21,704 nucleotides of DNA from a virus (IMGVR_UViG_3300026762_000070:1-21704), one strand, 5' to 3'. Counted from the stretch's first letter, positions 1,132 to 18,852 are shown. The notes: a model not told the origin generated them from the letters alone. Made by a program: numbers and translations.

Positions 1132-1175
1132 GCTAAATACTTCACGCGATATTCTTTAAAAAAGCCGAGTTAGTT

Positions 1176-1193
1176 CTCAAACATATGTTTAAG
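1176..1193. promoter_or_regulatory. Palindromic site 1 (CTCAAACATATGTTTAAG) centred between divergent TATA boxes
   Basis: 22-bp inverted repeat at 1174-1195 with one mismatched pair. The 18-mer lies exactly 13 bp from TTTTTAAA on each side (1155-1162 on minus; 1207-1214 on plus). Confidence 0.8.
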
Positions 1194-1237
1194 AAACAAT
1201 TCGTTATTTTTAAACCTTTTTGTGACAAGTTAAAGAT

Positions 1238-1519
1238 ATGAAACCCGAGTGTAAAGTTCTTTTAAAGGCATTCGAGAGCGTTTCTTCATATAAATATGAT
1301 GAAGATTTTCCTGAAATGCTATCATATATGTACCTTTTGTTAAAGGGGTACTGGAGAGTAAACGATGACGGAGAGACCGAAGAAGTAAAAGCACCACCGT
1401 TCACTACTATATCCCTGCTAAATGCCATGAGGTCAATAGTGGAAAAAGTTAGGGACGGCACCACAATCGAAGAAATCGTAAACGAAAAGGAACTGTGCGG
1501 AGATGTTGAGGAGGTATGA
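1238..1519 (+). CDS. Hypothetical protein, 93 aa
   Basis: TTTTTAAA at 1207-1214, 24 nt before the ATG; ATGA overlap with the next gene. Confidence 0.78.
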   Translation: MKPECKVLLKAFESVSSYKYDEDFPEMLSYMYLLLKGYWRVNDDGETEEVKAPPFTTISLLNAMRSIVEKVRDGTTIEEIVNEKELCGDVEEV

Positions 1520-1932
1520 CAGCAACAAATTCAACCGTAATAAATGCGTTACCACCCTTTTTCTATACTCAGGTCTTTCTTATTGACGTCGCTGGTGGAT
1601 TCATAATAATGACAATAATTGAGCTGTTTCTGCTAAGAAACAGTAGCCTGACCCATCTACGACTTGCTTTGCCGTTTCTAACATTTTCGATAGGTTTTAC
1701 TCTTATATCGTTATATCTTTCTCCCTACATAACGTATAACCCAGTATACACTACACCGTTCAACGTGACGTACAGGATCACGCCCTATAGCACCGATGGT
1801 GCTGTACTCCTATACATCAGTATCGCAGTCCTTGCCATGGCTATAGCGTACTTTATTTACGCGTTTGCGGTCGACGTGTTGCACCTTTCCTTTGGCAGTA
1901 GTAGTAAAGATGATGGTTATTTCATACCTTAA
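1516..1932 (+). CDS. Membrane protein, ~3 TM helices, 138 aa
   Basis: Three hydrophobic stretches; N-x-S/T sequons (NST, NSS, NVT); translationally coupled to its neighbours. Confidence 0.8.
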   Translation: MTATNSTVINALPPFFYTQVFLIDVAGGFIIMTIIELFLLRNSSLTHLRLALPFLTFSIGFTLISLYLSPYITYNPVYTTPFNVTYRITPYSTDGAVLLYISIAVLAMAIAYFIYAFAVDVLHLSFGSSSKDDGYFIP

Positions 1933-1934
1933 GG

Positions 1935-2525
1935 GTGATGCCCATGTTATTGTTCAAGAAAAAAGCGTTGCCAAGCGTCTATAAGAACTACGACGCATTA
2001 TTATTTTTGCCTCCAGCCTTAGTCAAAATTGATAAAAAAACAAGGATAATAGAAAAAAACGGTGTACATGTTGCTATAATGTATTCTGAAACTAACGGTA
2101 TTTCCGTCATGTTAGATTTGCCGATTGATTTTCTGAAATTATACTATAAGATGACTACACAAGTAAACCAGGGGAACCCCAGTGACAGGATAGTCTATTT
2201 TGCAATAGTTTACATTTCTCCGCAAGCGTATGCAATAAAAAGGGCAAAAGTACAAAAAATGAATGCGAATACTAAAAAGAAGTTTTTCATTTTCCCAAGG
2301 TGGGTTTGGCTCAACCTAGAACGTTATAACGGTGCGTCGAATTATTTCGCCATAAATAAATTTGGAGACGAAGACCCTGCAAACTTCTCCTCAAAGGAAT
2401 TTGATACATTCGGTGCCGTTGGGGTTACCTATAATAATTACTTTATTTTCGCCAGTGTTGCGAGGAAGGAGTACGTAGCTTCTATTAATAAACAAATATC
2501 CCTCGGTCTGGGGTTGGGGTTATAA
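1935..2525 (+). CDS. Hypothetical basic protein, ~196 aa (start may be GTG 1935, ATG 1938 or ATG 1944)
   Basis: Long ORF 2 nt after the previous stop; TAATG overlap with the next gene. Confidence 0.78.
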   Translation: MMPMLLFKKKALPSVYKNYDALLFLPPALVKIDKKTRIIEKNGVHVAIMYSETNGISVMLDLPIDFLKLYYKMTTQVNQGNPSDRIVYFAIVYISPQAYAIKRAKVQKMNANTKKKFFIFPRWVWLNLERYNGASNYFAINKFGDEDPANFSSKEFDTFGAVGVTYNNYFIFASVARKEYVASINKQISLGLGLGL

Positions 2526-3049
2526 TGTCTCTCACATATTTACAATCACTCGTTGGGAAAAATGTGGTATTATTCAACTATCTACGTAATGTATTCAAAA
2601 ATAAAATATACAAAATAGCCGAAAATGGGAATGAATACACTCTTTATATTGATATGGGGATACCTAGCAGGTTACAGCACAGGGTAGCACACCCCGGCAT
2701 TTACTTTATCACAGACGTAATGATACAGGGTACTAACTATGTAATTTATCTGAAAAAGCAGGTCGACCTAAAGAAGTTTGCACTAGTAAGCTCGACAACA
2801 ACTTCTGAATATTACGTATCTTCGTACCGTAAAACGCAGTATAAAACCGATGGAGGGTACATATTCGACGCTTTAGAATTCGATATAGGTGGGTTTAAGC
2901 ACCTTACGTTTAACTATAATAAGTGTATTATAGCGAAAGTGAAAAAGAGTGGTTATAGGCGTATTGCGGTATGCTTAGGTGATAGTGTCCTTATACAGGA
3001 TATAAACAATATTACGTGCAGTGGCTGTGATTGGTTTACGGTTGAGTAG
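2525..3049 (+). CDS. Hypothetical protein, 174 aa, beta-rich, Cys near C-terminus
   Basis: Long ORF coupled by TAATG overlap. Confidence 0.78.
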   Translation: MSLTYLQSLVGKNVVLFNYLRNVFKNKIYKIAENGNEYTLYIDMGIPSRLQHRVAHPGIYFITDVMIQGTNYVIYLKKQVDLKKFALVSSTTTSEYYVSSYRKTQYKTDGGYIFDALEFDIGGFKHLTFNYNKCIIAKVKKSGYRRIAVCLGDSVLIQDINNITCSGCDWFTVE

Positions 3050-3060
3050 GGTGATGGACA

Positions 3061-3717
3061 ATGGTATATAGTAAAAAAGAAAACGAAGTCCCTACTCCTG
3101 AACAGTTTCAGTTCCTGGTCTACAAAGAGGTATGTATGGATAACAATAGTATGATATATCCTACTTTAGCTATAGAGAGGCTGAACACTGTAATGCTTAC
3201 CTATTACAGCGACGAGATAGAAGAGCTATGGAGGGAATTAGTTCTCAAAAAATATGAGAACGCGACGTCTGAGGACGAACTAAGGCAGATATTGAAAATC
3301 GGTTGCGATATAATGTTCATCGTAATGAATGCGTCTGGTGACGATGTTAAGCCGTTGGTAACGAAAATACTAAACGGCACAAGGAAAAAACATCTGTTTT
3401 ATGTTAACGAGGAGGCACTTGTGACTGAAAGTTCGTATCTCATAGACGTACTGACAAAATTCGTTAACCCCAACGGGTTTGACGTACTCACCGTGTTGAG
3501 CATACTAAAGGACGTACAAATTAGGACAGCTACTATGATTAGCAGTATTAAAGGTACGTCGTTATATCAGACACTTGTCAGCGAATTAGGAATAGATGAG
3601 AATGTCATTGAGAAAAAATGCACGGCGAAGTACTATAGAGAATGTGTAACAGAGAAGAAAACACAGTTATTAAAAGCATTGCAGTTCATCAGGATGAATA
3701 TAAATATCCCACGTTAA
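3061..3717 (+). CDS. Hypothetical alpha-helical protein, 218 aa
   Basis: Long ORF with GGGTGA SD-like site upstream; last gene of the 1238-3717 operon. Confidence 0.8.
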   Translation: MVYSKKENEVPTPEQFQFLVYKEVCMDNNSMIYPTLAIERLNTVMLTYYSDEIEELWRELVLKKYENATSEDELRQILKIGCDIMFIVMNASGDDVKPLVTKILNGTRKKHLFYVNEEALVTESSYLIDVLTKFVNPNGFDVLTVLSILKDVQIRTATMISSIKGTSLYQTLVSELGIDENVIEKKCTAKYYRECVTEKKTQLLKALQFIRMNINIPR

Positions 3718-3730
3718 AAAAGAATTTACC

Positions 3731-3976
3731 TTACATTGTGTTTTTGTTTAGTTTTTTGAGTAGTCTGTCTAAAAGACGTTTATCCACCATTAAGATGTCT
3801 GCAATGTCATCAATATATTCGTTCGCAATGTCCTCTAAATCAGTACGATCAAGTTCCACATCATCAACGTCAACGTCAACGTAATCTTTGTAGTCGTCAC
3901 ATATGATCCCTTCTAGTTTATCGCAATAACAATTGTCCTCTAATCTAGTATATTTTATGAACACTGGTACTTTCAT
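3731..3976 (-). CDS. Small acidic protein, 81 aa (22 Asp/Glu)
   Basis: Strong GAGGTGA SD-like site; ATG directly follows the upstream stop. Confidence 0.78.
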   Translation of the reverse strand: MKVPVFIKYTRLEDNCYCDKLEGIICDDYKDYVDVDVDDVELDRTDLEDIANEYIDDIADILMVDKRLLDRLLKKLNKNTM

Positions 3977-4249
3977 TTAGCTCACCTCTGCGACTACGAG
4001 CTTGTCACCTTCTAATCTTGCCTTTATTGTGAACGTCGGCTCATTCTCACCATATACCTTAATCAGTAGTGTGCTGTCGTCAATGATGAAGTAGTCATAC
4101 TTGTCCCATGTCCTCATGTGATCGTTTAGGAATGATTCTATTAGTTGTTCGATAACATCCCAGTCTAGCTTTAGCAGGCTTCTATTAGAATTGAAAATAC
4201 TTCCCCATCCTTCTTGGTCTTGTGAAAATTCTTGAGACATGTTGCTCAC
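3977..4249 (-). CDS. Small acidic protein, ~87-90 aa (GTG 4249 or ATG 4240)
   Basis: TTTATATA box at 4272-4279 (minus strand) with a palindrome immediately upstream; coupled to the 81-aa gene. Confidence 0.8.
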   Translation of the reverse strand: MSNMSQEFSQDQEGWGSIFNSNRSLLKLDWDVIEQLIESFLNDHMRTWDKYDYFIIDDSTLLIKVYGENEPTFTIKARLEGDKLVVAEVS

Positions 4250-4280
4250 ACTATAATACTATCAAAACTAGTATATAAAC

Positions 4281-4298
4281 CTCAAACAGCTGTTTGTG
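4281..4298. promoter_or_regulatory. Palindromic site 2 (CTCAAACAGCTGTTTGTG), abutting the TATA box of the 3977-4249 gene
   Basis: Core AAACAGCTGTTT is a perfect palindrome; intergenic; lies over the expected BRE position. Confidence 0.75.
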
Positions 4299-4322
4299 AG
4301 AGCGGAATACGGGTTCCACTCC

Positions 4323-4988
4323 TTAACCTCCATTTAAAACTACGGAGAAGATCGTAGTGTTTTGTGCATATATAACTAGAGTATTATCGCATATGTACGA
4401 TTTTACTTCCCCACCGTCATGTACTACTATTATGCTTCCGTGTATCGGGTAGTATAATGTCTGTTCTATCAGTGCTGTCCCGTTTATCGTGATTTTTCCT
4501 TTTTGCACTGTCACATTCCCGTTATATAGTATCTGCCAACCGTATTCCGATATCCCATACGATGAGTTGTATATTACAGTAAAACTAGGATTTACGATCG
4601 GATATATCGTACCTGCAGGGGCAAACCCGCTTATAGATAAGACAGCAGTTTGAGTACTGTACAGGTAGAATGTAATTACATATGGTGAGTTTTGCGAAAT
4701 GGCAACAGTAGGATCAGGTGCCGTAACGTTTACTATAACATATTCGTGCGGTTTTAGGATTATTATGTTTGGGTACCAACGATGACTGTTAATCACCGGC
4801 ACCAATACATATGTTTTATTGGTAGGGTTTTGTATGCATATCGTTATCACGTTATACTTGTTTATTTCTCCTATATCGTAAAAATCCAATACTTTTGCGT
4901 GCAGTTGCGGGTGATAGAAAAAAATGGAAAACGTGAAAAGAGATGGTATTATAACTGCTAACATTAGTACGATTTCAAACTTTTGCAT
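4323..4988 (-). CDS. Membrane-anchored beta-sandwich-like protein with N-glycosylation sequons, ~221 aa
   Basis: Likely start ATG 4988 (GGTGG SD-like site upstream; overlaps the glycosyltransferase stop by 14 nt). N-terminal TM segment followed by a Tyr/Ile/Val/Asn-rich domain with sequons NKT, NVT, NSS, NGT, NTT. Confidence 0.75.
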   Translation of the reverse strand: MQKFEIVLMLAVIIPSLFTFSIFFYHPQLHAKVLDFYDIGEINKYNVITICIQNPTNKTYVLVPVINSHRWYPNIIILKPHEYVIVNVTAPDPTVAISQNSPYVITFYLYSTQTAVLSISGFAPAGTIYPIVNPSFTVIYNSSYGISEYGWQILYNGNVTVQKGKITINGTALIEQTLYYPIHGSIIVVHDGGEVKSYICDNTLVIYAQNTTIFSVVLNGG

Positions 4989-6027: not shown

Positions 6028-6039
6028 AACCGACCCCTG

Positions 6040-6696
6040 CTATAACCTATCTGTACTTATAGGAGTAATACCTAACGTCTGTGCTATTTCTAGTGGAGAT
6101 AACATTTCTACTCTCATTTTCGATGTGCTTACTCCTGCAACTTCCATGATACTCCTTTCAAACGATAACAAAAGTAATATCACTAGTTTATGTGCCTCAT
6201 TAAGCTTAGCTATTATATCATCATAATTCGCATCGCTTGATATCAAACTACGAAGCTCTGAAAACTTTTCAGACAATTCGTCAACGGCAAGACTTGAAAA
6301 CCTATCCGTCAAAATCGATAATAAGATCTGGAAATTCTCATCTACGTTATATGGAGTGCCGTAGAACTGTAAAGACCCGCTCTTAAGGTCTTTCGTTAGA
6401 ATTAGGACGTAATTGTTTATGATTTCTTGAATAGTTGTTACTTTGATGGCTTCCTTCTGTGTCACTTGCCTTGTCGGTATTATTGCCTTTTCCCTGATTG
6501 CCTGCCTGACCAGGTTTGGGTCAACTTTTACAATATTTCTCCTTCCAAGTGGAGATAACTGGGGTTGTTGTTGGGTTTGTTGTATTTGTGGAAATAGTGG
6601 CGTTGGTGGTGCAGGCGATGTCGGGGTTCCAGGTATTTCATAAGTGGGTTCCTGTTGCTGTTGTTGTTTTTTATTATTGGAGTTATTTAGGCTCAT
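6040..6696 (-). CDS. Hypothetical protein with Gln/Pro-rich disordered N-terminus and helical C-terminal domain, ~218 aa
   Basis: TTTTTAAA at 6720-6727 is 24 nt from ATG 6696, so the ORF-track start at 6720 is probably too long. Poly-Q and PTSPAPPTP segments. Confidence 0.78.
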   Translation of the reverse strand: MSLNNSNNKKQQQQQEPTYEIPGTPTSPAPPTPLFPQIQQTQQQPQLSPLGRRNIVKVDPNLVRQAIREKAIIPTRQVTQKEAIKVTTIQEIINNYVLILTKDLKSGSLQFYGTPYNVDENFQILLSILTDRFSSLAVDELSEKFSELRSLISSDANYDDIIAKLNEAHKLVILLLLSFERSIMEVAGVSTSKMRVEMLSPLEIAQTLGITPISTDRL

Positions 6697-6740
6697 AATA
6701 ATTTCTTGTACAGAAGTCATTTAAAAAGCGGGTTTTTAGG

Positions 6741-6758
6741 CTCAAACAGATGTTTGAG
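6741..6758. promoter_or_regulatory. Palindromic site 3 (CTCAAACAGATGTTTGAG) in the divergent promoter of the MoxR gene and the 6040-6696 gene
   Basis: 8-bp perfect arms; 13 bp from the minus-strand TATA (6720-6727) and 5 bp from the plus-strand TATA (6764-6771). Confidence 0.8.
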
Positions 6759-6792
6759 GAAAATTTTTAAGCTTCAGACGCTAGATGTTTTT

Positions 6793-8556
6793 ATGCAATT
6801 ACAAGAACAACAAGATAAGAACAGTGGAACTTTGTCGTCTTCTGTTGATGTTTCTACTATTGCAAGACGTTTGAAGGACGAGTTAGATAAATATGTTGTA
6901 GGAAATGAAGACGTCAAAACAGCTGTAATAACAGGACTCTTGACGGGGTTTCCTACCCTGCTCATAGGAGACCCAGGTACTGCAAAAACGTATACTATCG
7001 AGATCCTTTCGAAAATGATCGATGGGATTAAACCAGAAGAGCTTTTTATAGTACTCGCTCACGAGGCAATGACGCCAGAAGACATTTTTGGAAATACAAA
7101 CCTAAAAAAATTGAGAGAGGAAGGAGTACTAGAGTATATTACTGAAGGCTTCTTGCCATCTGCAAAACTCGTTTTCATAGACGAGATTTTCAAGAGCAAT
7201 AAAGTCCTTGCCGAATCGCTGTTCAGAGCGATCAACGAAAAGAAGTTTAGGAATGGAAGTAAAGAGATCTCGTTACCTTGGCTAGCGTTCTTTTCTGCGT
7301 CAAACGAAGTTAGAGTAAATACACAAGCGGACAGAGCGTTCCTCGATAGGTTCAAGATATTCGCTACAGTTCTTTCGCCTAACTTGGAAGACATACAAAA
7401 CCTCCGCTCAGTTGCAGAAAGGTATTATAAAGTTCTTACGGCAACTAAGCCTACTTCAATCCCAACTGTAACGAGTTATGACGAAGTTAAAAAAATACAG
7501 GATAAAATCCTTTCAGATTACACGAAGTACGTGAAGCAGGATATTGTACTCGAAGCAGTGAAGCAGGGTAACCTCATCCTAGGTGCGATAGCACAGGCTT
7601 TACAAAACCCAAGAGCGTTTAGCGATTCCGGAATCGTAAGGTCGTATTTCCGTTCGATGGGTGGGTATCTGACAATCAGCGAGAGAAAATTCAAAAGCAT
7701 AATGCAAGTCGCCAATGCACTACGCGAAATGTTCGGCAATTCAACAATTACACCAGTGCATACTGCGTTAGCGTTCTACCTTACAATTCCGTTCACACCA
7801 GAGCTGAAGAATATAATATCTCCTATAGTTTCGACATTGATCAAATCGTATTTCAACACAAGTGCATTTAATAATAATAATTCTTCTATTGATATTAATA
7901 GCTTGGTAGATAGTATTTCTCAAACAGTAAAGAATATCCTGGACGACAAAAACCTAAATAATTTGCTAAACAAAGCGTCTTCATACGCTGTAGACCTTAT
8001 TGGTAGAACATTCCCAGCGTCGACGCCTGAATTGGCAAAATATAGAGGAACTCTTCTTATGAAATTTTCCGATGTGGTGACGAGTAATAATGATAATACA
8101 CCACAAAAGCTGGCTAAATTCGCGGAAGCTGTAGGTATCCTGCACGACGTTGCAACAAAGTATGCCAATAATATTAAAATTAGGACTTTAGCACAGAAAC
8201 TGCTCCAAAATATTGTATCTACTGTCTTCGATAAGATAGATGTAGATCGTATGAACCATGATGCGATGACTGAGCTTGACAAAGTTTATGACAAGATAAA
8301 AGCTGAAATTGAAAGTAAATATAACGAACTAATGAAACTAGGAGAGAACGATGAGTACAGTAAACTGATCGCAGGGATACGAAAATTCTTTCCACAATTT
8401 TCGGACGCGTTGCCAGGAGCAGTAGTAGACCAGGAGCAAAAAGAAGAAATAATGAAGCGTCTTGATGAAGCTGTAGGTGAGGCGAGGACTACAATACTAG
8501 ATTATATAAACACATTAAGAAAAACTAAGAATGCACTTTCACAAATGACGAAGTGA
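6793..8556 (+). CDS. MoxR/RavA-family AAA+ ATPase (ATV p618-like), ~587 aa
   Basis: Walker A GDPGTAKT, TPEDIFG, EGFLPSAKLVFIDEIFKS (Walker B), AINEKKFRNG, ASNE sensor-1 and AFLDRF Arg finger all closely parallel RavA. Start moved to ATG 6793 on TATA spacing. Confidence 0.93.
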   Translation: MQLQEQQDKNSGTLSSSVDVSTIARRLKDELDKYVVGNEDVKTAVITGLLTGFPTLLIGDPGTAKTYTIEILSKMIDGIKPEELFIVLAHEAMTPEDIFGNTNLKKLREEGVLEYITEGFLPSAKLVFIDEIFKSNKVLAESLFRAINEKKFRNGSKEISLPWLAFFSASNEVRVNTQADRAFLDRFKIFATVLSPNLEDIQNLRSVAERYYKVLTATKPTSIPTVTSYDEVKKIQDKILSDYTKYVKQDIVLEAVKQGNLILGAIAQALQNPRAFSDSGIVRSYFRSMGGYLTISERKFKSIMQVANALREMFGNSTITPVHTALAFYLTIPFTPELKNIISPIVSTLIKSYFNTSAFNNNNSSIDINSLVDSISQTVKNILDDKNLNNLLNKASSYAVDLIGRTFPASTPELAKYRGTLLMKFSDVVTSNNDNTPQKLAKFAEAVGILHDVATKYANNIKIRTLAQKLLQNIVSTVFDKIDVDRMNHDAMTELDKVYDKIKAEIESKYNELMKLGENDEYSKLIAGIRKFFPQFSDALPGAVVDQEQKEEIMKRLDEAVGEARTTILDYINTLRKTKNALSQMTK

Positions 8557-8563
8557 GTGAATT

Positions 8564-10804
8564 ATGCAAAGCTTCTTTAATAATAATCAAGACAATGAGG
8601 AAGAAAGACTAGAAGAACTAACAAACACTATTTTTGAAACACTGGTAAGAGATCTTGAATCTAATGAGTTTCGTTATCTTCCAATTCCACCCTGGCTTAG
8701 GGCTAGTTTAAGAGACACTGTATATAAACTTGTCAAGATAGCATCACAACAAAACAAACTTCTTTTGCAATTCCCAGCAATACTAGCTTATTTTGTTTAT
8801 AATTTTTTGAAAAATATCGATTTAGATAGACTTAACTACATAAACGAAAAATTAGACGAACTTCAGCGTCTGATACAACGTAAAAACTTGCAAGGTTTAT
8901 CCTTCAATACTATCAAACAGATGTTGCAACAGGAATTACAGGAGAAAAAATTCAGACCCAGACAAAAAGAGCAGAAGCAAAGCGGAAATAAACAAGGCGA
9001 AAAGAAGCAAGGAGGAGAAGAAGGACAGGAAAGTGAAGAAGAAGGAAACGAAGGAGAACAGAGCAATTCCCAAGAAGGACAGGAATCAGAAGGTGGGAAT
9101 GAAGAGAGTCAAAACGAGGAAGAGAGTGGAGAACAAGGGCAAGAATTAGAAGGTGAAACAGGTAAAGAAGAAGGAGAACAAGGTGAAGAAGGTCAGGGAA
9201 GCGAAAAAGAAGGACAAAATAGTGAGGAACAAGAAGGACAAAGCGGTGAACAAGGAGAAGAACAGGGAAGCGAAAGCGGAGAAGAGAGTGGAGAACAACA
9301 AGAACAAGAATTAGGAGAAGAAGGGCAGGAAAGTGAAAACGAAGGAGAAAATGTGACTCAAGAGAGTGAAGGACAAGAAGGAGAGGAATCAGAATGGGAA
9401 AGTGAAAACGAAGGTCAAAGTGGTGAACAAGGACAAGAAAGCCAGGAGGGTACTGAGCAGGAACAAAGCGGAAATGAAGGACAAGAAGGAGAAGAGGGTC
9501 AAAGTGGAGAGGAACAAGGTGAAGGCGTAGAAGAAGGAGGAGAACAAGGAGGAGAGGAATCAGGAGAAGGAGAGGAAAGTGAGGGGAGCCAAAGTGGTGA
9601 AGAAGGAGAACAAGGAGAGGAATCAGAAGGTGAAGAGGGAGAAGAACAAAGTGGAGAAGAAGGCAACCAAGGTCAAAATGGCGAAGAGAGCCAAGGAGAA
9701 TTAGGAGAAAGCGAGCAGGAAAACGGTGAGGAACAAGGAGAAGAAGGTGAAGGAGGAGAAAGTGGTGAAGAAGGCGGTGAACAAGGAGGAGGAGAATCAG
9801 AAGGAGGATCACAGGGAGGAGAACAGCAAGGAGGAGAAGAAAGCGAAGAAGGTCAAAGTGGTGAACAAGGACAAGAATCAGAAGGTGGGGAAGGACAAGA
9901 AATCGAAGATATTACAGAAGACCTCGAAAATGACATTAATGAAGAATCAGAGATTTTAGATGAATTAGAAGAAAGCCTTCAAAAGTCGTTATCAGTGTTA
10001 TCTATTGGGGAAGGCTCAGGAGGAGGAGTATTAAAGGATGTCAATCCTAGAGTTTTGGAACTGCTAGATAGGGCTAACAGGATTATGGCTTTAGCTAACC
10101 AAGTTGATTTACAGTACGCTAACAGAGGCGTTAAAGATCAGGGTGGAGTAATGAAGGGGATAACGACTGGAAATAATGTCAAACATATGTTTAAGAGCCA
10201 ACTAATATTACCAGACGAGATTTTCCTCGAGCGGTACACTAACAGAGCCTTACTGCAAAGAGCGGTAGAAAATGAGGGCGTTGGGGACTTATATTTCATG
10301 ATAGACAAAAGCGGGTCTATGATAAGTGAAATGCCGAACGGGTACACAGCGTTGGAAAACGTTTCTGCAGTAGCCTTAGCTTCTGCTATGGAAGCGGAAA
10401 AGAATAATAAGAAGGTGTTTGTGCAATACTTCGATGATTCAGCAACCGAGCCTCTAGACGTTAACAACGTTTTCGAACTAGCTCAGATTGCACCTGGAGG
10501 AGGAACGGACATGATGGTGGCACTAAAACGTTTCATGGACTATTATAATAACTATCCAGGACTAAAGGACGTAAAACAGATCTTCATACTGTCTGATTTT
10601 GAGACGAATTATGATAAACAAACTCTCCAGGATTTCAAGAACTTTGCAAGAAATAACGACTTAGTAGTTACGTGTATACATGTATATAATGGCGAAGTGC
10701 CTGATGAAATGCAACACATAATAGACGAAATCTGCGACGAATATTACAAATTTAATAAGTACGATGCAAGTGAATTATTTTCAGCAGTGTATTCAAAGGT
10801 TTAA
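8564..10804 (+). CDS. VWA/MIDAS-domain protein with long acidic low-complexity insert (ATV p892-like MoxR partner), 746 aa
   Basis: MIDAS residues DKSGS, GGTD and LSDF in the C-terminal ~200 aa; directly downstream of the MoxR gene; central E/G/Q/S tract. Confidence 0.9.
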   Translation: MQSFFNNNQDNEEERLEELTNTIFETLVRDLESNEFRYLPIPPWLRASLRDTVYKLVKIASQQNKLLLQFPAILAYFVYNFLKNIDLDRLNYINEKLDELQRLIQRKNLQGLSFNTIKQMLQQELQEKKFRPRQKEQKQSGNKQGEKKQGGEEGQESEEEGNEGEQSNSQEGQESEGGNEESQNEEESGEQGQELEGETGKEEGEQGEEGQGSEKEGQNSEEQEGQSGEQGEEQGSESGEESGEQQEQELGEEGQESENEGENVTQESEGQEGEESEWESENEGQSGEQGQESQEGTEQEQSGNEGQEGEEGQSGEEQGEGVEEGGEQGGEESGEGEESEGSQSGEEGEQGEESEGEEGEEQSGEEGNQGQNGEESQGELGESEQENGEEQGEEGEGGESGEEGGEQGGGESEGGSQGGEQQGGEESEEGQSGEQGQESEGGEGQEIEDITEDLENDINEESEILDELEESLQKSLSVLSIGEGSGGGVLKDVNPRVLELLDRANRIMALANQVDLQYANRGVKDQGGVMKGITTGNNVKHMFKSQLILPDEIFLERYTNRALLQRAVENEGVGDLYFMIDKSGSMISEMPNGYTALENVSAVALASAMEAEKNNKKVFVQYFDDSATEPLDVNNVFELAQIAPGGGTDMMVALKRFMDYYNNYPGLKDVKQIFILSDFETNYDKQTLQDFKNFARNNDLVVTCIHVYNGEVPDEMQHIIDEICDEYYKFNKYDASELFSAVYSKV
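8966..9900 (+). repeat. Purine-rich low-complexity repeat region encoding a Glu/Gly/Gln/Ser tract
   Basis: Degenerate EGQSGEQG-type units; one exact 30-bp repeat at 9410-9439 and 9848-9877. Boundaries approximate. Confidence 0.85.
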
Positions 10805-10862
10805 GCTCTCTTTTTCTACACTGATATAGCTCTTTTTATAAGTTATAACCCAAGTTAAAATT

Positions 10863-11222: not shown

Positions 11223-11659
11223 TGCCAACTGAACTCACGCCTGCAGACGTGATTTCGTTAATATCTGAAGCCCTAGGAGAAAAAGATGAGGAGGGCGAAC
11301 CAGAGACCTTGCTGAAATTATTACTACGCGACGATTTGCCTAAACAAACTAGGCTAATTATCCTCAACTGTATCGTGAAAAACTGCGGGTTGCAGAAAAG
11401 TTTGTCCGTCCTAGACCCATTCGTCCCACTAGACGAAATAGAATCATTAGAGACGCTAAAGATCGATGGGACGAAAGTACTTGCATGCATTAATTACACA
11501 AAAGTTAGGGACTGTTACCTGATAATTTTAGCGAATAGGCAGTTTCACATCAAAAGAGTAACTAATCCTAACGAACTATTACAGAAGATGAAGCAAGGAG
11601 GAGGAAAGAAACAAAACAAGGATCTTATTTTAAGTAAGCTCAGCGGTGAGGATATATGA
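11222..11659 (+). CDS. Hypothetical protein, 145 aa
   Basis: GGTGG SD-like site; overlaps both neighbours. Confidence 0.8.
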   Translation: MPTELTPADVISLISEALGEKDEEGEPETLLKLLLRDDLPKQTRLIILNCIVKNCGLQKSLSVLDPFVPLDEIESLETLKIDGTKVLACINYTKVRDCYLIILANRQFHIKRVTNPNELLQKMKQGGGKKQNKDLILSKLSGEDI

Positions 11660-13170
11660 TATGCGAAGTCGTTGCCAGTTCGTTCAAGCCAAGAGACGGT
11701 GACGTGGTGAACGCTGACATAACAAACATACGTTTTGCATACCCACCAGGCTGTATCTTCTCCTCTCAGTACACGCAATTCATCCACGTAGATTACCCCT
11801 TGCCGAAGATAAGCCGTCTAAAATTCAAGAGAGAGAATGGGGAAGAAGTGAAGGACGACAATTACGTAGTAATAGATATGGGAGAGGACTTTTTGGTTTT
11901 ACCAATAGAAGTATGGAATAAGCTGAAGGAGCTTATATCCACGTACTTGAGTGAAGGGACTTTGCACGGAGGTATACTATTGTACGGAGTCCCTGGTACC
12001 GGTAAATCGTTCATTGCAACAAAACTGCTTACAAGGATTCTTGGTTTGAAAGCAATCGTTAAGCAACCTACTGATTTCCTGACGAAATACGTGGGCGAAC
12101 CTTACCAATTGCTAAACGATTTCATAAACAAACAGCTGTTTTCAGACAAACCTTCCATCATAGTGTTTGACGAGGGAGAAAGGTTTCTGTTGAAGAGAGG
12201 TGGAGGGAGTGGCGAAGCTGAAAAATTGGTAGAGGACAACATGAAGAATATATTATTAGAAAAATTGCAGGAATTTGCGGATTCGCAATATCCTTCGATT
12301 CTCGCATTAACCACAAACGCTTCAATAAACGATATGGACGACGCAATGCTGAGGAGGTTTCCGTGGAAAGTTTATTTCCCTCCTTATTCGCACACCGTTT
12401 ACGAGTATATAGCAAGGAGAATAACTACACAAAGGACTTTCAAAATTGAGGATAAGGAATACGATGTACAGAAATTATCGTTTTATGCATCTGCTACCGG
12501 CATTTCTGTAGCTGAGTTCAGGACTATAATACAGACTGGGACTATCTCTTTCCTCAGGTCAAAAAGTAACTTCCCTAGGAGACTCGTACCATTCGAATTA
12601 CAAGATAAGGAAAGTATTTTAGATATAACGAAATTGCCCCAACTCAGGCGTTTTGATATCAAAAATAAGAACGTAAAAATGTTATGCGAAGGGGCATTAT
12701 ATACCATGACTGCAGTAGTAGCAAGCTATTTTCTTACAATCGAGAATAGACCAGTTTACCTTATAGATTTACAAGAGTCCACTTCGCTCAGGTACGGAAG
12801 TGACGATATCATAACATTACTCAAGCAGGAAAACAAACCCGTCGGTATAATTCACATGCATTCCAACCTCAACATCAACAAACAGCTGTTAATAGAGCGT
12901 CTACTCGAAGAGGATAACGTTAGTTTTGTGGTGATAACAAGTTTTGATAGTTCATCATTACAAGTACAAACATTGAAGCTTCTACCTAGGGTTGACATAA
13001 CGCAATTACCTGCAACTGACACAGACATTTTGAAAAAAATAATATACACGGTAGACACATTTTACGGACTTAAGTTGGACATGCAAAAAACTATGAACGA
13101 ACTGTACAAAGAGATGGATTTTAGAAAAGCTATGGACGTGCTGGAGAAAATGATTGTCATGGCAATCTAA
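11656..13170 (+). CDS. Classical-clade (CDC48/Vps4-like) AAA ATPase, probably ATV p529-like, 504 aa
   Basis: Walker A GVPGTGKS, pore loop KYVGE, Walker B IIVFDEGE, second region of homology TTN...MDDAMLRRF; GGTGAGG SD-like site with ATGA overlap. Confidence 0.9.
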   Translation: MICEVVASSFKPRDGDVVNADITNIRFAYPPGCIFSSQYTQFIHVDYPLPKISRLKFKRENGEEVKDDNYVVIDMGEDFLVLPIEVWNKLKELISTYLSEGTLHGGILLYGVPGTGKSFIATKLLTRILGLKAIVKQPTDFLTKYVGEPYQLLNDFINKQLFSDKPSIIVFDEGERFLLKRGGGSGEAEKLVEDNMKNILLEKLQEFADSQYPSILALTTNASINDMDDAMLRRFPWKVYFPPYSHTVYEYIARRITTQRTFKIEDKEYDVQKLSFYASATGISVAEFRTIIQTGTISFLRSKSNFPRRLVPFELQDKESILDITKLPQLRRFDIKNKNVKMLCEGALYTMTAVVASYFLTIENRPVYLIDLQESTSLRYGSDDIITLLKQENKPVGIIHMHSNLNINKQLLIERLLEEDNVSFVVITSFDSSSLQVQTLKLLPRVDITQLPATDTDILKKIIYTVDTFYGLKLDMQKTMNELYKEMDFRKAMDVLEKMIVMAI

Positions 13171-13227
13171 GCGACTCAATAAGCACTTTCTCCTTTTTTA
13201 TTAACCCTTATTCGTCTATTTTTTCTC

Positions 13228-13422: not shown

Positions 13423-13433
13423 TGACATAACTT

Positions 13434-13451
13434 TTTAAACAGCTGTTTGAG
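13434..13451. promoter_or_regulatory. Palindromic site 4 (TTTAAACAGCTGTTTGAG) overlapping the TATA box of the 13463 gene
   Basis: Core AAACAGCTGTTT at 13437-13448; TATA TTTTTAAA at 13432-13439. Confidence 0.78.
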
Positions 13452-13462
13452 AGAGATATAAT

Positions 13463-13945: not shown

Positions 13946-14001
13946 ACTACCAGTCCTCACGGCTGACTTCCGTCCCCTTAACCACCCAGAAATTTAAATC
14001 T

Positions 14002-14019
14002 GCAAAACATATGTTTTAA
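14002..14019. promoter_or_regulatory. Palindromic site 5 (AAAACATATGTTTT) between the TATA and the start of the 759-aa gene
   Basis: 14-bp perfect palindrome at 14004-14017; AATTTAAA at 13991-13998. Confidence 0.75.
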
Positions 14020-14025
14020 TGATGT

Positions 14026-16305
14026 ATGATGAGAGTTATCAGAAGAAAGACCATATTTCTAATCCTGCTATATTTAGTTTTCTTTATCTTACCGTTTTTC
14101 CTGTTAACAACAACAAAAGCTAGTCTTATCCAGGAAGAAGTACCTATATCAGTTAACGTAAACGCAAACATTTCACAAGGGCTAATTTACATTGCTCCAC
14201 TCCCGCAACAAACCCAAGTGTTCGGTCAAAATTACTACGTATCGAACTCCCTGGGTTATTATGAATATTCATATTTGTTCTCAGAAACACCACCGTTGCT
14301 TGTGTGGTACGAGCCATCTCCTTCATCGCAAACTTATTATTTCGTTTATGGAGGAAACACTCAAGCTAGTGCCGTGACGACGGGTGTGTTTAGTTTTTAC
14401 ACTCAGTTCTATTATCTCAACACATCTATCTTCAATGTATCAGACGTTTCACTGCTTGGTGGGTCATTGATACTAAACGGGCAAAATAGCCTTGTAACTT
14501 TTACAACGACGGCGTTGCGTTATACATCTGCAGTTATACTTTACAACTTTCAATCTCCAGCTGTTGTAACGCTACATGAATTGACATATGCTGGCTCAAT
14601 TCCTCCAGGTAGCATAGTTACGCTAAGCCTTTTCACATATTCCGACTTACAGACAATTCCTTCGTATACAGCGTTTCCTTTCGGGTCTACGACCTGGGTT
14701 ATAGCTTCCGACGATTACGTTAAAAGTTCGCAATTCACAATTTCAAATTCACAATTTATATACAACGCCCAGGTAGCAGGCACGCCGAACGAAGAAGTTA
14801 CCCAAGTCGCTTTGCCAAAATCATCTATATACGGATTGGTGTTTGGGTCGTCAATGCTTTTACAGTACCCTTCTACTAAATATTTAGCACCGCAAACTGT
14901 AGCCCCACCATCCATTACGTTTAACGGTACTTTTGCGGTATCTCAAAGTGCATTATTCAGTACTAATTCAGTACTGTTAGAAAACCCAGTATACTTCTTT
15001 GACCCAACATTACTTAACGGTTCTAATATCCTGGTGTATAACGATAGCAAATGGTACTCCTTACCAGTGCAAGCCAGCAATCTGAGACTCGACCAAAACC
15101 ATATTGTCATGTATATTTTACCTTATAACTCGTCTTCCAATTGCATTTTCTTCGAAGATATACCAGTAGGTAGTGTGATTTCAGTTAAGTATGCAAACGG
15201 CACTACATATTCTGTTACTGCGAGCGGAAAGACGGTAAACACGGTAGGAGGCGTGAGTTTAGTTGATCTGAAAGTTTACGGACGGAATGTGGTAGGGATA
15301 TCGATCAAGCCATCGTTAGTGAACACACAAATCAATTACAATATGCTGGTTGGGTTTTCTGACTTTCTACACAAAGCTGGGCTGATAGTAAATACGACAG
15401 GGGTATACGTGTACAACTCTCAAACAGCTGTTACAAAGCTGGTAAATAATCCGCAATTTCCAGCTGATGTTGGAGTTGGCTATGCGGACATAGGCAATAC
15501 ATTCTATCTCATAGGTTTTTATTATTCCTCAGGGTCTTTTTACACGTTCATAACACCTATGCCAAACCCAGTCGCGTCAACTGGTATAGTTCCTTATATT
15601 AATTATAATGGCACAATACCGCTATCTGTATCAAGTATCGGTATAACACTGTCTTCCGGTCTATATTATGAAGTTACAGGTATCATATCAATTGCAACAG
15701 GTTCGCCTACACCATTACAGTCTTCCGTGCTTAGTTTGACGACAGCCCCGGGAGACGCAATAGTCAATAACAATAATGCAATCTACCAAACTAAGCTATC
15801 AAATTCGTCGTCGTCTCTTACACTAATAGGCTTCACTGGGTATAACCTTGTTGTTCAGTACGGGAGCATAGAATCACAACTTATCATATCCAGTAACTAT
15901 TACCCAACAAACTTGCCAACAAACTTACAAGTAGTTGTTACAGTATCGGAATCCACTAGGACGATAACAATTTCCACATCACCGCTACCAGTCAAACCAG
16001 TCCAGGTCGCATCATTGAATATTACTAATGCAACCACTGTTGTAAAATATAACGGCAATAGCGGAGCTTCATTTATAACTAATATACATTCAGTAAATAA
16101 CCAACTAATAGGAATTATAACATACTATGGATTTCTAGCAATAGCCGTAGCATCTTATCGTTATTCTTCTCAACTGTGGTCTTCAACATTGTTTCTTAGT
16201 TTCGCTACACTCTCTATGGGTCTGCTCTTTGCTAACTATATAGTACTACCCTTCAGTATCGGTGCCGTAATATTAGGCTTCATATTCAAAAGGCTAAACC
16301 TCTGA
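14026..16305 (+). CDS. Large membrane (glyco)protein: N-terminal signal/TM, beta-rich ectodomain, ~3 C-terminal TMs; probable virion or adsorption protein, 759 aa
   Basis: Basic-then-hydrophobic N-terminus; S/T/Y/V/N-rich body with 13 N-x-S/T sequons counted by eye; hydrophobic C-terminus. Virion role is inferred. Confidence 0.8.
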   Translation: MMRVIRRKTIFLILLYLVFFILPFFLLTTTKASLIQEEVPISVNVNANISQGLIYIAPLPQQTQVFGQNYYVSNSLGYYEYSYLFSETPPLLVWYEPSPSSQTYYFVYGGNTQASAVTTGVFSFYTQFYYLNTSIFNVSDVSLLGGSLILNGQNSLVTFTTTALRYTSAVILYNFQSPAVVTLHELTYAGSIPPGSIVTLSLFTYSDLQTIPSYTAFPFGSTTWVIASDDYVKSSQFTISNSQFIYNAQVAGTPNEEVTQVALPKSSIYGLVFGSSMLLQYPSTKYLAPQTVAPPSITFNGTFAVSQSALFSTNSVLLENPVYFFDPTLLNGSNILVYNDSKWYSLPVQASNLRLDQNHIVMYILPYNSSSNCIFFEDIPVGSVISVKYANGTTYSVTASGKTVNTVGGVSLVDLKVYGRNVVGISIKPSLVNTQINYNMLVGFSDFLHKAGLIVNTTGVYVYNSQTAVTKLVNNPQFPADVGVGYADIGNTFYLIGFYYSSGSFYTFITPMPNPVASTGIVPYINYNGTIPLSVSSIGITLSSGLYYEVTGIISIATGSPTPLQSSVLSLTTAPGDAIVNNNNAIYQTKLSNSSSSLTLIGFTGYNLVVQYGSIESQLIISSNYYPTNLPTNLQVVVTVSESTRTITISTSPLPVKPVQVASLNITNATTVVKYNGNSGASFITNIHSVNNQLIGIITYYGFLAIAVASYRYSSQLWSSTLFLSFATLSMGLLFANYIVLPFSIGAVILGFIFKRLNL

Positions 16306-16363
16306 CGGGTGGTCTGACAACCACCCAAGCAACCACCCAAGAGGAGAAAAAACTTATATTCAT

Positions 16364-16381
16364 CTCAAACATATGTTTTAG
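16364..16381. promoter_or_regulatory. Palindromic site 6 (CTCAAACATATGTTTTAG) between the TATA and the start of the 507-aa gene
   Basis: Core AAACATATGTTT at 16367-16378; CTTATATT at 16353-16360 preceded by a purine-rich BRE-like run. Confidence 0.78.
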
Positions 16382-17904
16382 TGAATAGGGTAGAACAAAT
16401 GACTGAAGTATACCTATTAAATCTATACCCAGGGACGGTAACGGTAAGAGTAGTGGAATATGCAAAAGAATACGAAGGTACAAAAGAATCTGGGATAACT
16501 ACACCGCAAGCATTTCAATTAAAACTGTCAGAACACCAAATTGTCAACCTACTCAACACTAATTTTATACCGACTTCTCTAGAATACAAGGCGGTTTATC
16601 CACGTATGAAGTTTCCACATTTTTCTAATTATATAGGTATCATGGTTGAGGCTCAGGGGAGGGAAGCTATAAGTACTGTGCATGTACCATCATCAGTTCC
16701 ATTTTTTACTATTTATATTACTCAAGGATCTGACGGTTATCCACAAATTCAGACTAGCAATTCACCACCCCAAGTTGTACTAAATGAAATAGCAAGAACT
16801 AGTTCCACAACATCATCTCAGAGTTCTACGACGTCATCAACTAGTTCTACAACATCATCTAGTGCTACACAGAGTTCTACACCACCAACCACAACAACAA
16901 CGCCATTGTCTAGTACTACTAGTTCCTCTTCCAGTTCTACAAGTTCTCTAATAGACGAATTATTTAATATAATAGACTTACCAACATTTCAAAATTATAT
17001 TGATTACGCATACCTGGAAATCTCGTACTTGCTTAAGGGAAGTGGTTCTATTGCAAATCTCAGATCATATCTTCAACAAATATATGACGGCTTGCAGAAA
17101 GCAATAAACTTCCAAAACCAGGCTGGAGTTCATTTCGCAATTGTAGATGTATGGTGCCAAATTTATAAAAATCTTAAAACAATATGTGAAGAATTAAGTA
17201 ATGGAACGCTAACTGTAAGTAGCTTACAAAGCCTAAGAATGCCATCTGACATTTATGCTAATGCGTCATCATCTTACGAACGTGCTATAGCACAACAATG
17301 TGTAGATGATTATTGTAAAAATCTGAACTACTTCATTTCCCTTTTAAGTTCAACACAGAGTTCTACGACGTCGTCAACTAGTTCCACAACGACACCACCC
17401 AACCCTACTAGTTCCTCTTCCAGTTCTGCAACATCGTCTAGTGGCACTACGGTGTCGTCTTCATCTCCTACTACAATATCTCAGGGTCAGATATTAGCTC
17501 AGATACAGGCAGGTGACATAAATTCGCTTCAATCAGAAATGTCAGAATTACCCTCGAATATGGTTCCAGTAGTTAGTGCTGTTATTCAATTGTACCAAAC
17601 ATATGACATACCCGATGGAACTCCATTATCTACTGCAGTTGAACGTTTACTTAGTGATATTAGGGACGCATATTATAAAATAAGTAACCATAAGCAGGAA
17701 CTAGTAAACACGCAACAATTATCAAAGCTACTGCAAATATATAAAACTCTTGCTAGTAATGGCTTAGCACCTGCAAGCGAAAGTGCGTCGAAATTAAGTA
17801 AACTGGTGCAAACTTCAGGAGTTATGCCAGCTCTACCAGCTGTTTTAGGTCAATCTTATCCTGGCAGTGTGTATAACAATAATGTAAATAGCAATTTAGT
17901 CTAG
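16381..17904 (+). CDS. Modular protein: three globular domains separated by two Ser/Thr-rich linkers, ~501-507 aa (GTG 16381 or ATG 16399)
   Basis: Long ORF; S/T tracts at about 16800-16950 and 17345-17480; helical domains between them. Confidence 0.8.
   Translation: MNRVEQMTEVYLLNLYPGTVTVRVVEYAKEYEGTKESGITTPQAFQLKLSEHQIVNLLNTNFIPTSLEYKAVYPRMKFPHFSNYIGIMVEAQGREAISTVHVPSSVPFFTIYITQGSDGYPQIQTSNSPPQVVLNEIARTSSTTSSQSSTTSSTSSTTSSSATQSSTPPTTTTTPLSSTTSSSSSSTSSLIDELFNIIDLPTFQNYIDYAYLEISYLLKGSGSIANLRSYLQQIYDGLQKAINFQNQAGVHFAIVDVWCQIYKNLKTICEELSNGTLTVSSLQSLRMPSDIYANASSSYERAIAQQCVDDYCKNLNYFISLLSSTQSSTTSSTSSTTTPPNPTSSSSSSATSSSGTTVSSSSPTTISQGQILAQIQAGDINSLQSEMSELPSNMVPVVSAVIQLYQTYDIPDGTPLSTAVERLLSDIRDAYYKISNHKQELVNTQQLSKLLQIYKTLASNGLAPASESASKLSKLVQTSGVMPALPAVLGQSYPGSVYNNNVNSNLV
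16819..17427 (+). repeat. Duplicated Ser/Thr linker sequences
   Basis: 35-bp repeat with 2 mismatches at 16819-16853 and 17356-17390; 23-bp exact repeat at 16916-16938 and 17405-17427. Confidence 0.85.
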
Positions 17905-17939
17905 CAGAAACATAAAATTCACTTTATCGGAAACTGCTG

Positions 17940-18437
17940 TTAGGGACTAAAGATAATTTTTTCCTTTTCGAATAATTCCCTTATCTTTCTAGCTTCTTCT
18001 TCGTTTCTTTCTCCACCAGAATAAAGTAACGGTACGGCTATAGGTTCTTTCGTCAACCCTAACACATTAGCAAACTGTGTTATAATTTCCTTTAATATAG
18101 ATATCTTTAACATGTTAATTTCCTGCTCAACTCCGAACGCCGTAGGTCGAAGTTCTAATTGTAAAATGTCATCTATGTTTGAATTGATAATATCATTAAC
18201 CTTTACCAACAGTTCCCTAGTGTTCTTTACATCTCCAAGGTCAAACCCAAGCTTTATGTAATTCTGAAGTACAGTCTCAGCTACTCGTTTCAACTCATTA
18301 AAAATTATATTATTCTCAGCAACATCAAGTTCGCTAACTTGTTGTTCCAGAAACGTGGTGAGGTCAGCAAACGCATACAAAATAGAATTCGCATCGTTAT
18401 ACGAAAGAATAGAACCTAGTTTTTCTGAAAGTTTCAT
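17940..18437 (-). CDS. Hypothetical alpha-helical protein, 165 aa
   Basis: TTTTTAAA (18461-18468) 24 nt upstream of the ATG. Confidence 0.8.
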   Translation of the reverse strand: MKLSEKLGSILSYNDANSILYAFADLTTFLEQQVSELDVAENNIIFNELKRVAETVLQNYIKLGFDLGDVKNTRELLVKVNDIINSNIDDILQLELRPTAFGVEQEINMLKISILKEIITQFANVLGLTKEPIAVPLLYSGGERNEEEARKIRELFEKEKIIFSP

Positions 18438-18479
18438 ATAATGTACTTTGAAAATTAAGGTTTAAAAAAGGAAGTTGAC

Positions 18480-18827
18480 TTATGCGTTAACCACCTGTTC
18501 TGCGCTCATGGATGATAATAAGTTGTATGCTTCTTGCACTACAGGCATATATTGCTGTTGCACTTCTGGTGGGATTTCGACGTCCTGGAACCCCATACCT
18601 CTCTTCTTCAACCCTGCATTTTCTACTGCAGTCCTTATTGCTTCTACTACTTTATGAAGAATTGCTTTTACTTGTGGGTATCCATCCCTAGTCGCGTTAG
18701 CCTCTATTCCAGCGATCTTTAACGTTATTGTTGGGTATTTTGTTATTTTCCCGTCTAGTATTGCTTTTAATAGGTCTCTTGCCCCACCTATCACATCTTC
18801 TTTTCTTGGGAAATATTCATCCACCAT
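18480..18827 (-). CDS. ATV p131-like major virion protein (four-helix bundle, historically annotated as bicaudavirus major capsid protein), 115 aa
   Basis: YFPRKEDVIGGA...YPTITLKIAGIEANA...AILHKVVEAI...KRGMGFQ...IPPEV matches the p131 sequence as I recall it (YEPKKGDYAGGA...YPEVTLKLAGEEANA...AIHAIV...KGSGFQSQPIPGEV). Start set to ATG 18827 (TATA 18860-18867, GAGAGG upstream). Confidence 0.82.
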   Translation of the reverse strand: MVDEYFPRKEDVIGGARDLLKAILDGKITKYPTITLKIAGIEANATRDGYPQVKAILHKVVEAIRTAVENAGLKKRGMGFQDVEIPPEVQQQYMPVVQEAYNLLSSMSAEQVVNA

Positions 18828-18834
18828 TTTTCCT

Positions 18835-18852
18835 CTCAAACATATGTTTGAG
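18835..18852. promoter_or_regulatory. Palindromic site 7 (CTCAAACATATGTTTGAG, perfect 18-bp) over the expected transcription start of the p131-like gene
   Basis: Perfect inverted repeat between the TATA (18860-18867) and the ATG (18827). Confidence 0.82.

Follow-up and report, generated by a model that had tools for sequence, protein, structure and literature searches.

A recurrent promoter palindrome of Sulfolobus monocaudaviruses, a probable operator for a dimeric regulator encoded by the virus

The ribbon-helix-helix (RHH) protein Omega of the inc18 plasmids controls many promoters of one replicon via short repeated sites, serving copy-number and maintenance homeostasis. RHH regulators of archaeal viruses usually repress by binding over the transcription start (PMC5569661), and the aCcr1-box is bound by a small RHH protein that is also encoded by Sulfolobus monocaudaviruses (SMV) and Acidianus two-tailed virus (ATV) (PMC9976878). 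The timing and balance of gene expression in the large spindle-shaped archaeal viruses are largely unknown; a 2025 transcriptome paper on SMV1a describes a complicated expression pattern and names no cis-element (PMC12199143). Here, we describe a palindrome, AAACANNTGTTT, which recurs in a 21.7-kb viral fragment from IMG/VR (IMGVR_UViG_3300026762_000070:1-21704, estimated to be 41% complete; the whole stretch is called the window below) and in its relatives. The palindrome is real, strongly selected, and virus-specific, and related palindromes are found in some other members of the Bicaudaviridae. It most likely serves as the operator of a dimeric regulator that the virus itself encodes, and it offers a direct experimental handle on gene expression in these viruses.

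The window is about 89% identical to SMV4 and SMV1 (Bicaudaviridae), in reversed orientation relative to those records, and by its sequence it is a piece of an SMV1/SMV4-like monocaudavirus. It holds 10 copies of the palindrome, against 0.09 expected (the mean of 100 dinucleotide-preserving shuffles, with a maximum of 1), which agrees with the roughly 0.1 chance copies estimated in a preliminary description of this DNA. All seven cores reported there (1179, 4284, 6744, 13437, 14005, 16367, and 18838) are present and lie in intergenic gaps of the gene model, and three further exact copies that it did not list (3388, 10181, and 12130) all lie inside open reading frames (ORFs). The promoter-bearing gaps of the window together span 771 bp, and 7 of the 10 hold a copy. 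The two central bases are nearly always GC, TA, GA, or TC, so the palindrome can be described as two abutting hexamers, AAACAK and its complement. The flanks contribute yTC to one end of the word and kAG to the other, and with them the dyad symmetry, which is perfect over 12 bp, reaches 18 bp at 6741 and 18835. The CTC/GAG arms previously ascribed to most copies are perfect at 6741-6758 and 18835-18852 and have one mismatch at 1176, 4281, and 16364, but there are two mismatches at 13434, and the arms are absent at 14005. The 10 copies are the following.

1176-1193, no strand assigned: palindrome CTCAAACATATGTTTAAG between the facing TATA boxes of the divergent genes 526-1131 (-) and 1238-1519 (+); TATA gaps, 15 nt (+) and 13-15 nt (-); distance to either start codon, 47 nt.
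3388-3399, no strand assigned: intragenic copy AAACATCTGTTT in the 218-aa ORF 3061-3717 (+), without CTC/GAG arms; kept in SMV1 (34638), SMV4 (31428), and SMV3 (33925).
4281-4298, no strand assigned: palindrome CTCAAACAGCTGTTTGTG, 5 nt upstream, on the side of the B recognition element (BRE), of the TTTATATA box, which serves a two-gene acidic-protein operon, 3977-4249 (-) and 3731-3976 (-); on the - strand, the start codon follows at a distance of 34 nt, beyond the TATA box.
6741-6758, no strand assigned: perfect 18-bp palindrome CTCAAACAGATGTTTGAG in the promoter region from which a 226-aa gene, 6040-6720 (-), and the MoxR gene, 6793-8556 (+), diverge; TATA boxes 15-16 nt (+) and 6-8 nt (-) from the core.
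10181-10192, no strand assigned: intragenic copy AAACATATGTTT in the VWA-protein gene 8564-10804 (+); kept in SMV1 (27904) and SMV4 (24351).
12130-12141, no strand assigned: intragenic copy AAACAGCTGTTT in the AAA ATPase gene 11656-13170 (+); kept in SMV1, SMV4, and SMV3, and also in SMV2.
13434-13451, + strand: palindrome TTTAAACAGCTGTTTGAG overlapping the TTTTTAAA box, with the ATG (13463) of a 160-aa gene 14 nt downstream.
14005-14016, + strand: core AAACATATGTTT, with the ATTTAAAT box 5 nt upstream and the ATG (14026) of a 759-aa membrane protein 9 nt downstream.
16364-16381, + strand: palindrome CTCAAACATATGTTTTAG, with the CTTATATT box 6 nt upstream and the ATG (16399) of a 501-aa protein 20 nt downstream.
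18835-18852, - strand: perfect 18-bp palindrome CTCAAACATATGTTTGAG, with the TTTTTTAA box 10 nt upstream and the ATG (18827) of the RIP/P131-family gene 18480-18827 (-) 10 nt downstream.

The proximity of the sites to TATA boxes holds throughout: a TATA-like octamer is found 0 to 16 nt from every one of the seven intergenic copies, on the strand of a neighboring gene, and start codons lie 9 to 47 nt from the palindrome. The copies at 1179 and 6744 are midway between the facing TATA boxes, and the copy at 4284 is the single one in the window located upstream of its TATA box. When 42 site-gene pairs are oriented and aligned, an AT-rich TATA zone appears at -18 to -7 relative to the motif, whose flanks read yTC and kAG, and the start codon follows the motif most often by 9 to 16 nt (range, 2 to 29 nt). 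A TATA spacing that varies from 0 to 16 nt, as in the window, agrees better with an operator than with a core-promoter element of fixed position.

The same word is abundant in the full genomes of the closest relatives, with 28 copies in SMV1, 30 in SMV4, and 31 in SMV3, against none for the reversed control pattern, and it is the sole strongly over-represented palindrome in these three genomes. Exact copies occupy 15 of 28 promoter-bearing gaps in SMV1, 23 of 39 in SMV4, and 25 of 58 in SMV3 (43 to 59%). The 12.5% of the SMV4 genome that is non-coding carries 24 of its 30 copies, and SMV1-like metagenome fragments each have 3.3 to 8 copies per 10 kb. Conservation in relatives, on which the preliminary description had made its proposal depend, is clear: orthologous intergenic sites of the window, SMV1, SMV3, and SMV4 are 0.94 to 1.00 identical at the 12 positions, compared with 0.70 to 0.90 in the flanks. 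Copies within annotated genes number 3 to 12 per genome, against 0.05 to 0.11 in codon-order shuffles and 0.6 to 1.7 in protein-preserving shuffles, and these intragenic copies are 0.90 to 1.00 identical, even where neighboring codons vary at wobble positions.

The central bases are unevenly distributed. CATATG-type sites are found mainly in the structural-gene half of the SMV1, SMV3, and SMV4 genomes, and CAGCTG-type sites dominate the variable region; the two types may represent two affinity classes. At SMV4 positions 40933 and 42566, the sequence is identical over the roughly 90 nt compared, and each copy has a palindrome about 59 nt upstream of one of the paralogous 101-aa genes gp50 and gp53, which looks like a recent duplication of promoter plus gene. 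A second detail concerns the P131-type virion protein. In the annotations of SMV3 and SMV4, about 10 nt separate the palindrome from the ATG of its gene, and the window shares that ATG, at 18827. The SMV1 gene as annotated (HG322870.1, 16772-17233) would put the palindrome at 16864 inside the ORF, and its annotated start is probably too far upstream.

SMV2 shows a different state of the same element. Recognizable copies with one to four mismatches are found at the orthologous positions, both intergenic and intragenic, and three exact copies are left. SMV2-like metagenome contigs retain 1.2 to 2.5 sites per 10 kb and keep the site at the promoter of the orthologue of SMV1a gp03, which has been named the major capsid protein (PMC12199143). 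The density retained by these contigs indicates that the system is reduced in this lineage and not gone. We read the palindrome, from these alignments, as an ancestral element on which the constraint was relaxed in the SMV2 lineage.

The exact 12-mer was not found in ATV, ATV2, Sulfolobus tengchongensis spindle-shaped viruses 1 and 2 (STSV1 and STSV2), or YNP1. The shorter core ACAKMTGT is 5 to 12 times over-represented in ATV, ATV2, and Acidianus tailed spindle virus (ATSV), with lineage-specific flanks, and reaches 42 to 51 copies in SMV1, SMV3, SMV4, ATV, and ATV2, against 3 to 5 expected; in STSV1, STSV2, and YNP1, it does not rise above background. The octamers of ATV and ATV2 are of the ACAGCTGT type, with about 50 copies in each, and the ATSV-type site is AATCACAGCTGTGATT. 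Counts of ACAKMTGT outside the SMV clade, with the expected or control number, are as follows.

ATV (NC_007409.1): 51 copies, expected about 4; flanks rrACAGCTGTyy; GAACAGCTGTTC five times.
ATV2 (KX607101.1): 49 copies, expected about 4; flanks as in ATV; GAACAGCTGTTC six times.
ATSV (NC_029316.1): 23 copies, expected about 4 to 5; 18 copies of CACANNTGTG, often as ctgAAwCACAKMTGTGwTTcag.
STSV1: 3 copies, expected 3; no flanks.
STSV2: 5 copies, expected 5; no flanks.
YNP1: 2 copies, expected 1; no flanks.

Three ATSV copies that were checked lie 17 to 18 nt before an ATG, with a Shine-Dalgarno-like cgggg(a/t)gg stretch in between. STSV1 (NC_006268.1) has a repeated palindrome of its own, AATTGTCATGACAATT / AGAATTGTCATGACAATTCT, with four to five copies, at 30957, 66612, 68683, and 73168; it is unrelated in sequence to the SMV motif and has near-copies in STSV2. 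A scan of IMG/VR with TCAAACANNTGTTTGA returned mostly unrelated single matches.

We regard yTC-AAACA-K-M-TGTTT-kAG, with some reserve, as probably the operator of one two-fold symmetric protein, most likely virus-encoded and from outside the window, which would occlude promoters. At most promoters, the site lies 0 to 16 nt after the TATA box, which would place it at about -22 to +5 of the predicted transcription start. A dimer bound after the TATA box would allow TBP and TFB to bind and would exclude RNA polymerase, and at divergent pairs a single central site would serve both promoters, for which reasons we read the palindrome as a probable operator for silencing or negative feedback across the whole genome. 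Those copies that precede the TATA box and BRE, of which there are few, and the intragenic copies may act otherwise.

No window protein stands out as the binder; Pfam gives no helix-turn-helix (HTH) or RHH regulator among the 20 window proteins scanned, in agreement with the preliminary description. A tentative candidate, and the one we rank first, is a winged helix-turn-helix (wHTH) family of about 100 aa that comprises SMV4 gp60, SMV1 43683-44096 (SMV1a gp43), ATV ORF98a, and ATSV gp84, all outside the window. Its predicted structure is a winged helix with a predicted local distance difference test (pLDDT) score of >90 over residues 30 to 100, and Foldseek matches it to CRP/FNR-type wHTH domains with a probability of 0.98 and weak E-values. 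The family is found in SMV1 to SMV4, ATV, ATV2, and ATSV and not in STSV1, STSV2, or YNP1, which is the same distribution as that of the motif; among 101 sampled host-order genomes, it occurs in one. Palindromes lie within about 30 to 75 nt of the end or start of the wHTH gene in five of six viruses checked (ATV, ATV2, SMV4, SMV3, and ATSV), including two copies where the convergent ATV genes ORF211 and ORF98a leave a gap of 98 nt, and in SMV1 a palindrome overlaps the annotated 3' end of the gene. Of the small proteins that were compared between SMV2 and its relatives, this one has diverged the most in SMV2 (42%). PDB and Atlas searches with gp60 and with a 64-aa protein beside the integrase gene gave weak leads (wHTH-type families, 0.83; MazE-like, 0.78), and a genome search for integrase relatives found none.

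A more doubtful candidate is a TraY-like tandem RHH protein of 106 aa (SMV1 48050-48370, which is SMV1a gp50; SMV4 gp67; SMV3 gp86), also encoded outside the window. It matches Pfam RHH_1 (1e-8) and PHROG 876, "transcriptional repressor" (9e-29), and its model (pLDDT, 91) folds as strand-helix-helix, linker, and strand-helix-helix, being closest to TraY of the F plasmid. Motif copies are located upstream of its gene and at the next downstream promoter. Distant relatives of this protein are found in all large spindle viruses, including the motif-less STSVs. Another viral protein, or a host protein, seems rather unlikely as the binder in either case.

Two gene families are present in SMV1, SMV3, and SMV4 yet missing from SMV2. 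The first, an acidic, multicopy family that resembles HicB by eye (gp01), was rejected as too acidic for a DNA binder. The second, a Phd-like antitoxin, was rejected as it is also found in ATSV and in some SMV2-like contigs. An aCcr1-like RHH protein was likewise set aside, since it binds a different box. The acidic domain of about 90 aa has the signature FYIATF...VWGVGS...DAER.W...NPFRE and occurs in one to three copies per genome, sometimes as tandem fusions (L230:4390-4773 and 9181-9576; L232:7268-7915 and 8028-8306; L216:4443-5090; SMV4 9-440). It is limited to the motif-rich SMV1-like clade, not being found in SMV2-like genomes, and may be an anti-defence protein. A 140-aa winged-helix protein with the HTH_45 domain is, in turn, limited to the SMV2-like clade, in which the palindrome is largely decayed (SMV2 47044-47442, gp57; L226:7973-8395; L228:6743-7171).

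A wider proposal, which we consider doubtful, is that the SMV, ATV, and ATSV bicaudaviruses share an ACAKMTGT-core code with co-evolving flanks, which would be read by the virus-only gp60/ORF98a/gp84 winged helix at 25 to 50 sites per genome and would form a transcription master switch, possibly also a mark of self.

Several observations weigh against an occluding operator read by one of these viral proteins. The position of the sites relative to the transcription start is based on the usual Sulfolobales TATA-to-start distance of 26 to 27 nt and not on mapped starts. A purely promoter-level role leaves the conserved intragenic copies of the SMV genomes unexplained, and it does not account for ATV, where just 19 of the 51 core sites fall in non-coding DNA and the element thus extends beyond promoters. 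SMV2, in which most sites have decayed, encodes both candidate binders as well, and the wHTH protein is not notably basic. Its phyletic match with the motif is built on few independent contrasts, and other genes lacking in STSV1, STSV2, and YNP1 may share the pattern. Expression adds a further difficulty. When SMV1a genes are matched to sites via their SMV1 orthologues, the site-bearing gp03 has the top expression at all times, and gp05, gp06, and gp09 are early genes that are already high at 0.5 h after infection; gp11, gp23, and gp24 are full-time or late (PMC12199143). Any repression would therefore be partial, late, or conditional. This pattern weakens a simple tight-repressor model and is compatible with negative feedback once the factor accumulates, or with a positive role. 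The palindrome does not define the regulon of virion and morphogenesis genes suggested in the preliminary description: site-bearing orthologues fall in early as well as full-time/late classes (PMC12199143), the sites fill 43 to 59% of the promoter-bearing gaps of complete relatives, including those of variable-region and anti-defence genes, and they are also conserved inside genes.

Other explanations have to be weighed against the virus-encoded operator protein. It is improbable that a host (Sulfolobales) transcription factor binds the site and is exploited by the virus, be it as an activator from the first minutes or as a host repressor. The expression of site-bearing genes by 0.5 h would fit a factor that predates viral protein synthesis, no recognizable DNA-binding protein is encoded in the window, and the decay of sites in SMV2 could reflect a host switch. 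However, in 61 genomes of 1.1 to 2.7 Mb sampled from the order of a Sulfolobales metagenome-assembled genome, the motif occurs in 0 to 5 copies each, with a total of about 46 against about 29 for the reversed control, and the copies sampled have no common flanks or TATA geometry. The site density of the viruses is >1,000 times higher, and the lineage-specific flanks in SMV, ATV, and ATSV follow the virus lineage. The earlier proposal of a dimeric viral or host factor is thus narrowed: the palindrome is promoter-associated, strongly selected, and of the kind bound by a dimeric factor, but a host factor with its own regulon looks unlikely, because the motif is at background in these genomes. The virus-to-host contrast in density, together with the intragenic copies in excess of codon-order shuffles and their conserved wobble positions, would also be expected of mainly non-transcriptional docking sites for compaction, packaging, partition, or replication, comparable to parS or nucleoid-protein sites. 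Multiple copies, some of them intragenic, fit a parS-like element, as do the 32 of 51 ATV core sites in coding DNA a docking role in general. We nevertheless find such a main role improbable, as most 12-mers of SMV1, SMV3, SMV4, and the window fall in the 12 to 14% of the genome that is non-coding and are tightly tied to TATA boxes and start codons; no ParB-like or packaging-specificity partner was identified, although no search was aimed at ParB or AspA homologues.

It is very unlikely that TFB, TFE, or RNA polymerase itself recognizes the palindrome as a core promoter element, in the manner of an initiator or an unusual proximal element, without a dedicated factor. The motif is A/T-rich, covers about -12 to -1 in many promoters, which is the location of the proximal promoter element of Sulfolobus, and precedes highly expressed genes, but its distance from the TATA box is not fixed, one copy even being upstream of it, host promoters do not use it, and intragenic copies without TATA boxes exist. 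Perfect dyad symmetry and base-by-base invariance would, moreover, be unexpected for a directional element. Taken together, its dyad symmetry, its variable distance from the TATA box, and its lack of use in host genomes favor an operator over such an element. A role as an RNA hairpin, be it in a terminator, in a 5' leader, or at a processing site, is barely credible. The extended 18-mers can form stems of 7 to 8 bp, and T runs follow some copies, but the stems are weak by prediction (-1 to -8 kcal/mol at 37°C) and melt completely by 80°C, which is close to the temperature at which the host grows, and this role was rejected on thermodynamic grounds. The bases are, in addition, invariant rather than covarying, with no compensatory variation, and the usual TATA-to-start distance would place most of the motif upstream of the transcript.

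The neighboring genes named in the preliminary description (MoxR, VWA, the RIP/P131-like protein, and the 759-aa membrane protein) are correct, and its 507-aa protein is one of 501 aa, or 507 aa if translated from a GTG. The genes of the window with an assigned identity are listed here.

8-529, - strand: HAD/PNKP phosphatase (Pfam).
6793-8556, + strand: MoxR ATPase (Pfam).
8564-10804, + strand: VWA protein (identity taken from the SMV1 annotation).
11656-13170, + strand: AAA ATPase (Pfam).
18480-18827, - strand: RIP/P131-family capsid-type protein (Pfam).

The VWA protein has a calculated isoelectric point (pI) of 4.1, and positions 9001-10000 within its gene show an extreme strand composition (GC skew, 0.59; AT skew, 0.68). 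Two small, very acidic proteins (pI, 4.2 and 4.3) are encoded as a unit of their own at 3731-4249 (-), whose promoter is the sole one in the window with the palindrome upstream of the TATA box. Neither gene has a match in SMV1, and the SMV1 record annotates a miniature inverted-repeat transposable element at the corresponding place.

The preliminary description presented the regulon as possibly undescribed, and we likewise found no published description of the palindrome in a search that stopped short of subscription papers such as the original ATV, SMV1, and ATSV genome papers; text searches for the 12-mers and ACAGCTGT gave no relevant paper. The palindrome provides a pull-down oligonucleotide, two candidates for electrophoretic mobility shift assays, and mutable sites in the tractable SMV1a/S. 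islandicus system. It would also supply a virus-specific, host-orthogonal operator for Sulfolobus genetic tools, and the decayed sites of SMV2 offer a natural comparison for the loss of such a regulon.

Among described systems, Omega differs in belonging to a bacterial plasmid and in using 7-bp heptads in variable orientation, compared with a 12-bp perfect palindrome here. The modeled structure of the SMV tandem RHH protein is best matched by TraY of the F plasmid, which also carries its tandem RHH domains in a single chain. For Omega and TraY, homology to the SMV protein is found only at the level of the RHH fold. The central hexamer (CAGCTG, CATATG, or CAGATG) resembles the E-box, CANNTG, bound by basic helix-loop-helix (bHLH) dimers; the likeness is formal only, as no bHLH protein was found and the SMV specificity spans 12 to 18 bp. 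The aCcr1-box, bound by aCcr1 and by its homologues in bicaudaviruses (ATV gp29 and SMV3 gp63), is likewise a short palindrome between TATA box and start codon. It differs in its 9-bp consensus, A[T/G]G[A]TA[G]A[T/G]TACN, and in targeting the host cdvA and other host promoters (PMC9976878), whereas our palindrome is at background in the host-order genomes and does not belong to that regulon.

An anti-defence early-gene motif, obtained from aligned upstream regions in an analysis that covered SMV1 to SMV4, is also shared by many promoters of one virus. It differs in being centered on a strong BRE/TATA and in involving five SMV4, eight SMV3, and one or two SMV1 genes, and the SMV2 inverted repeat reported there overlaps the BRE and has another sequence than the SMV palindrome (PMC11065993). 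The 28 to 31 palindromes per genome, which include those of capsid, MoxR, and membrane-protein genes, separate the two sets, in a comparison of the gene assignments.

The closest parallels are the operators of SvtR in Sulfolobus islandicus rod-shaped virus 1 (SIRV1), F55 in Sulfolobus spindle-shaped virus 1 (SSV1), and AvtR in Acidianus filamentous virus 6 (AFV6) (PMC5569661). As in these, a dyad site would lie between or over TATA box and transcription start, promoter occlusion is predicted, and the viruses themselves encode small RHH and wHTH proteins. Those regulators are described for one or a few promoters each, whereas the SMV element is a 12-bp word found at 43 to 59% of promoter gaps, in 28 to 31 copies per genome, with candidate binders only, and, unlike those operators, it is present within genes as well and has counterparts in ATV and ATSV that are specific to each lineage.

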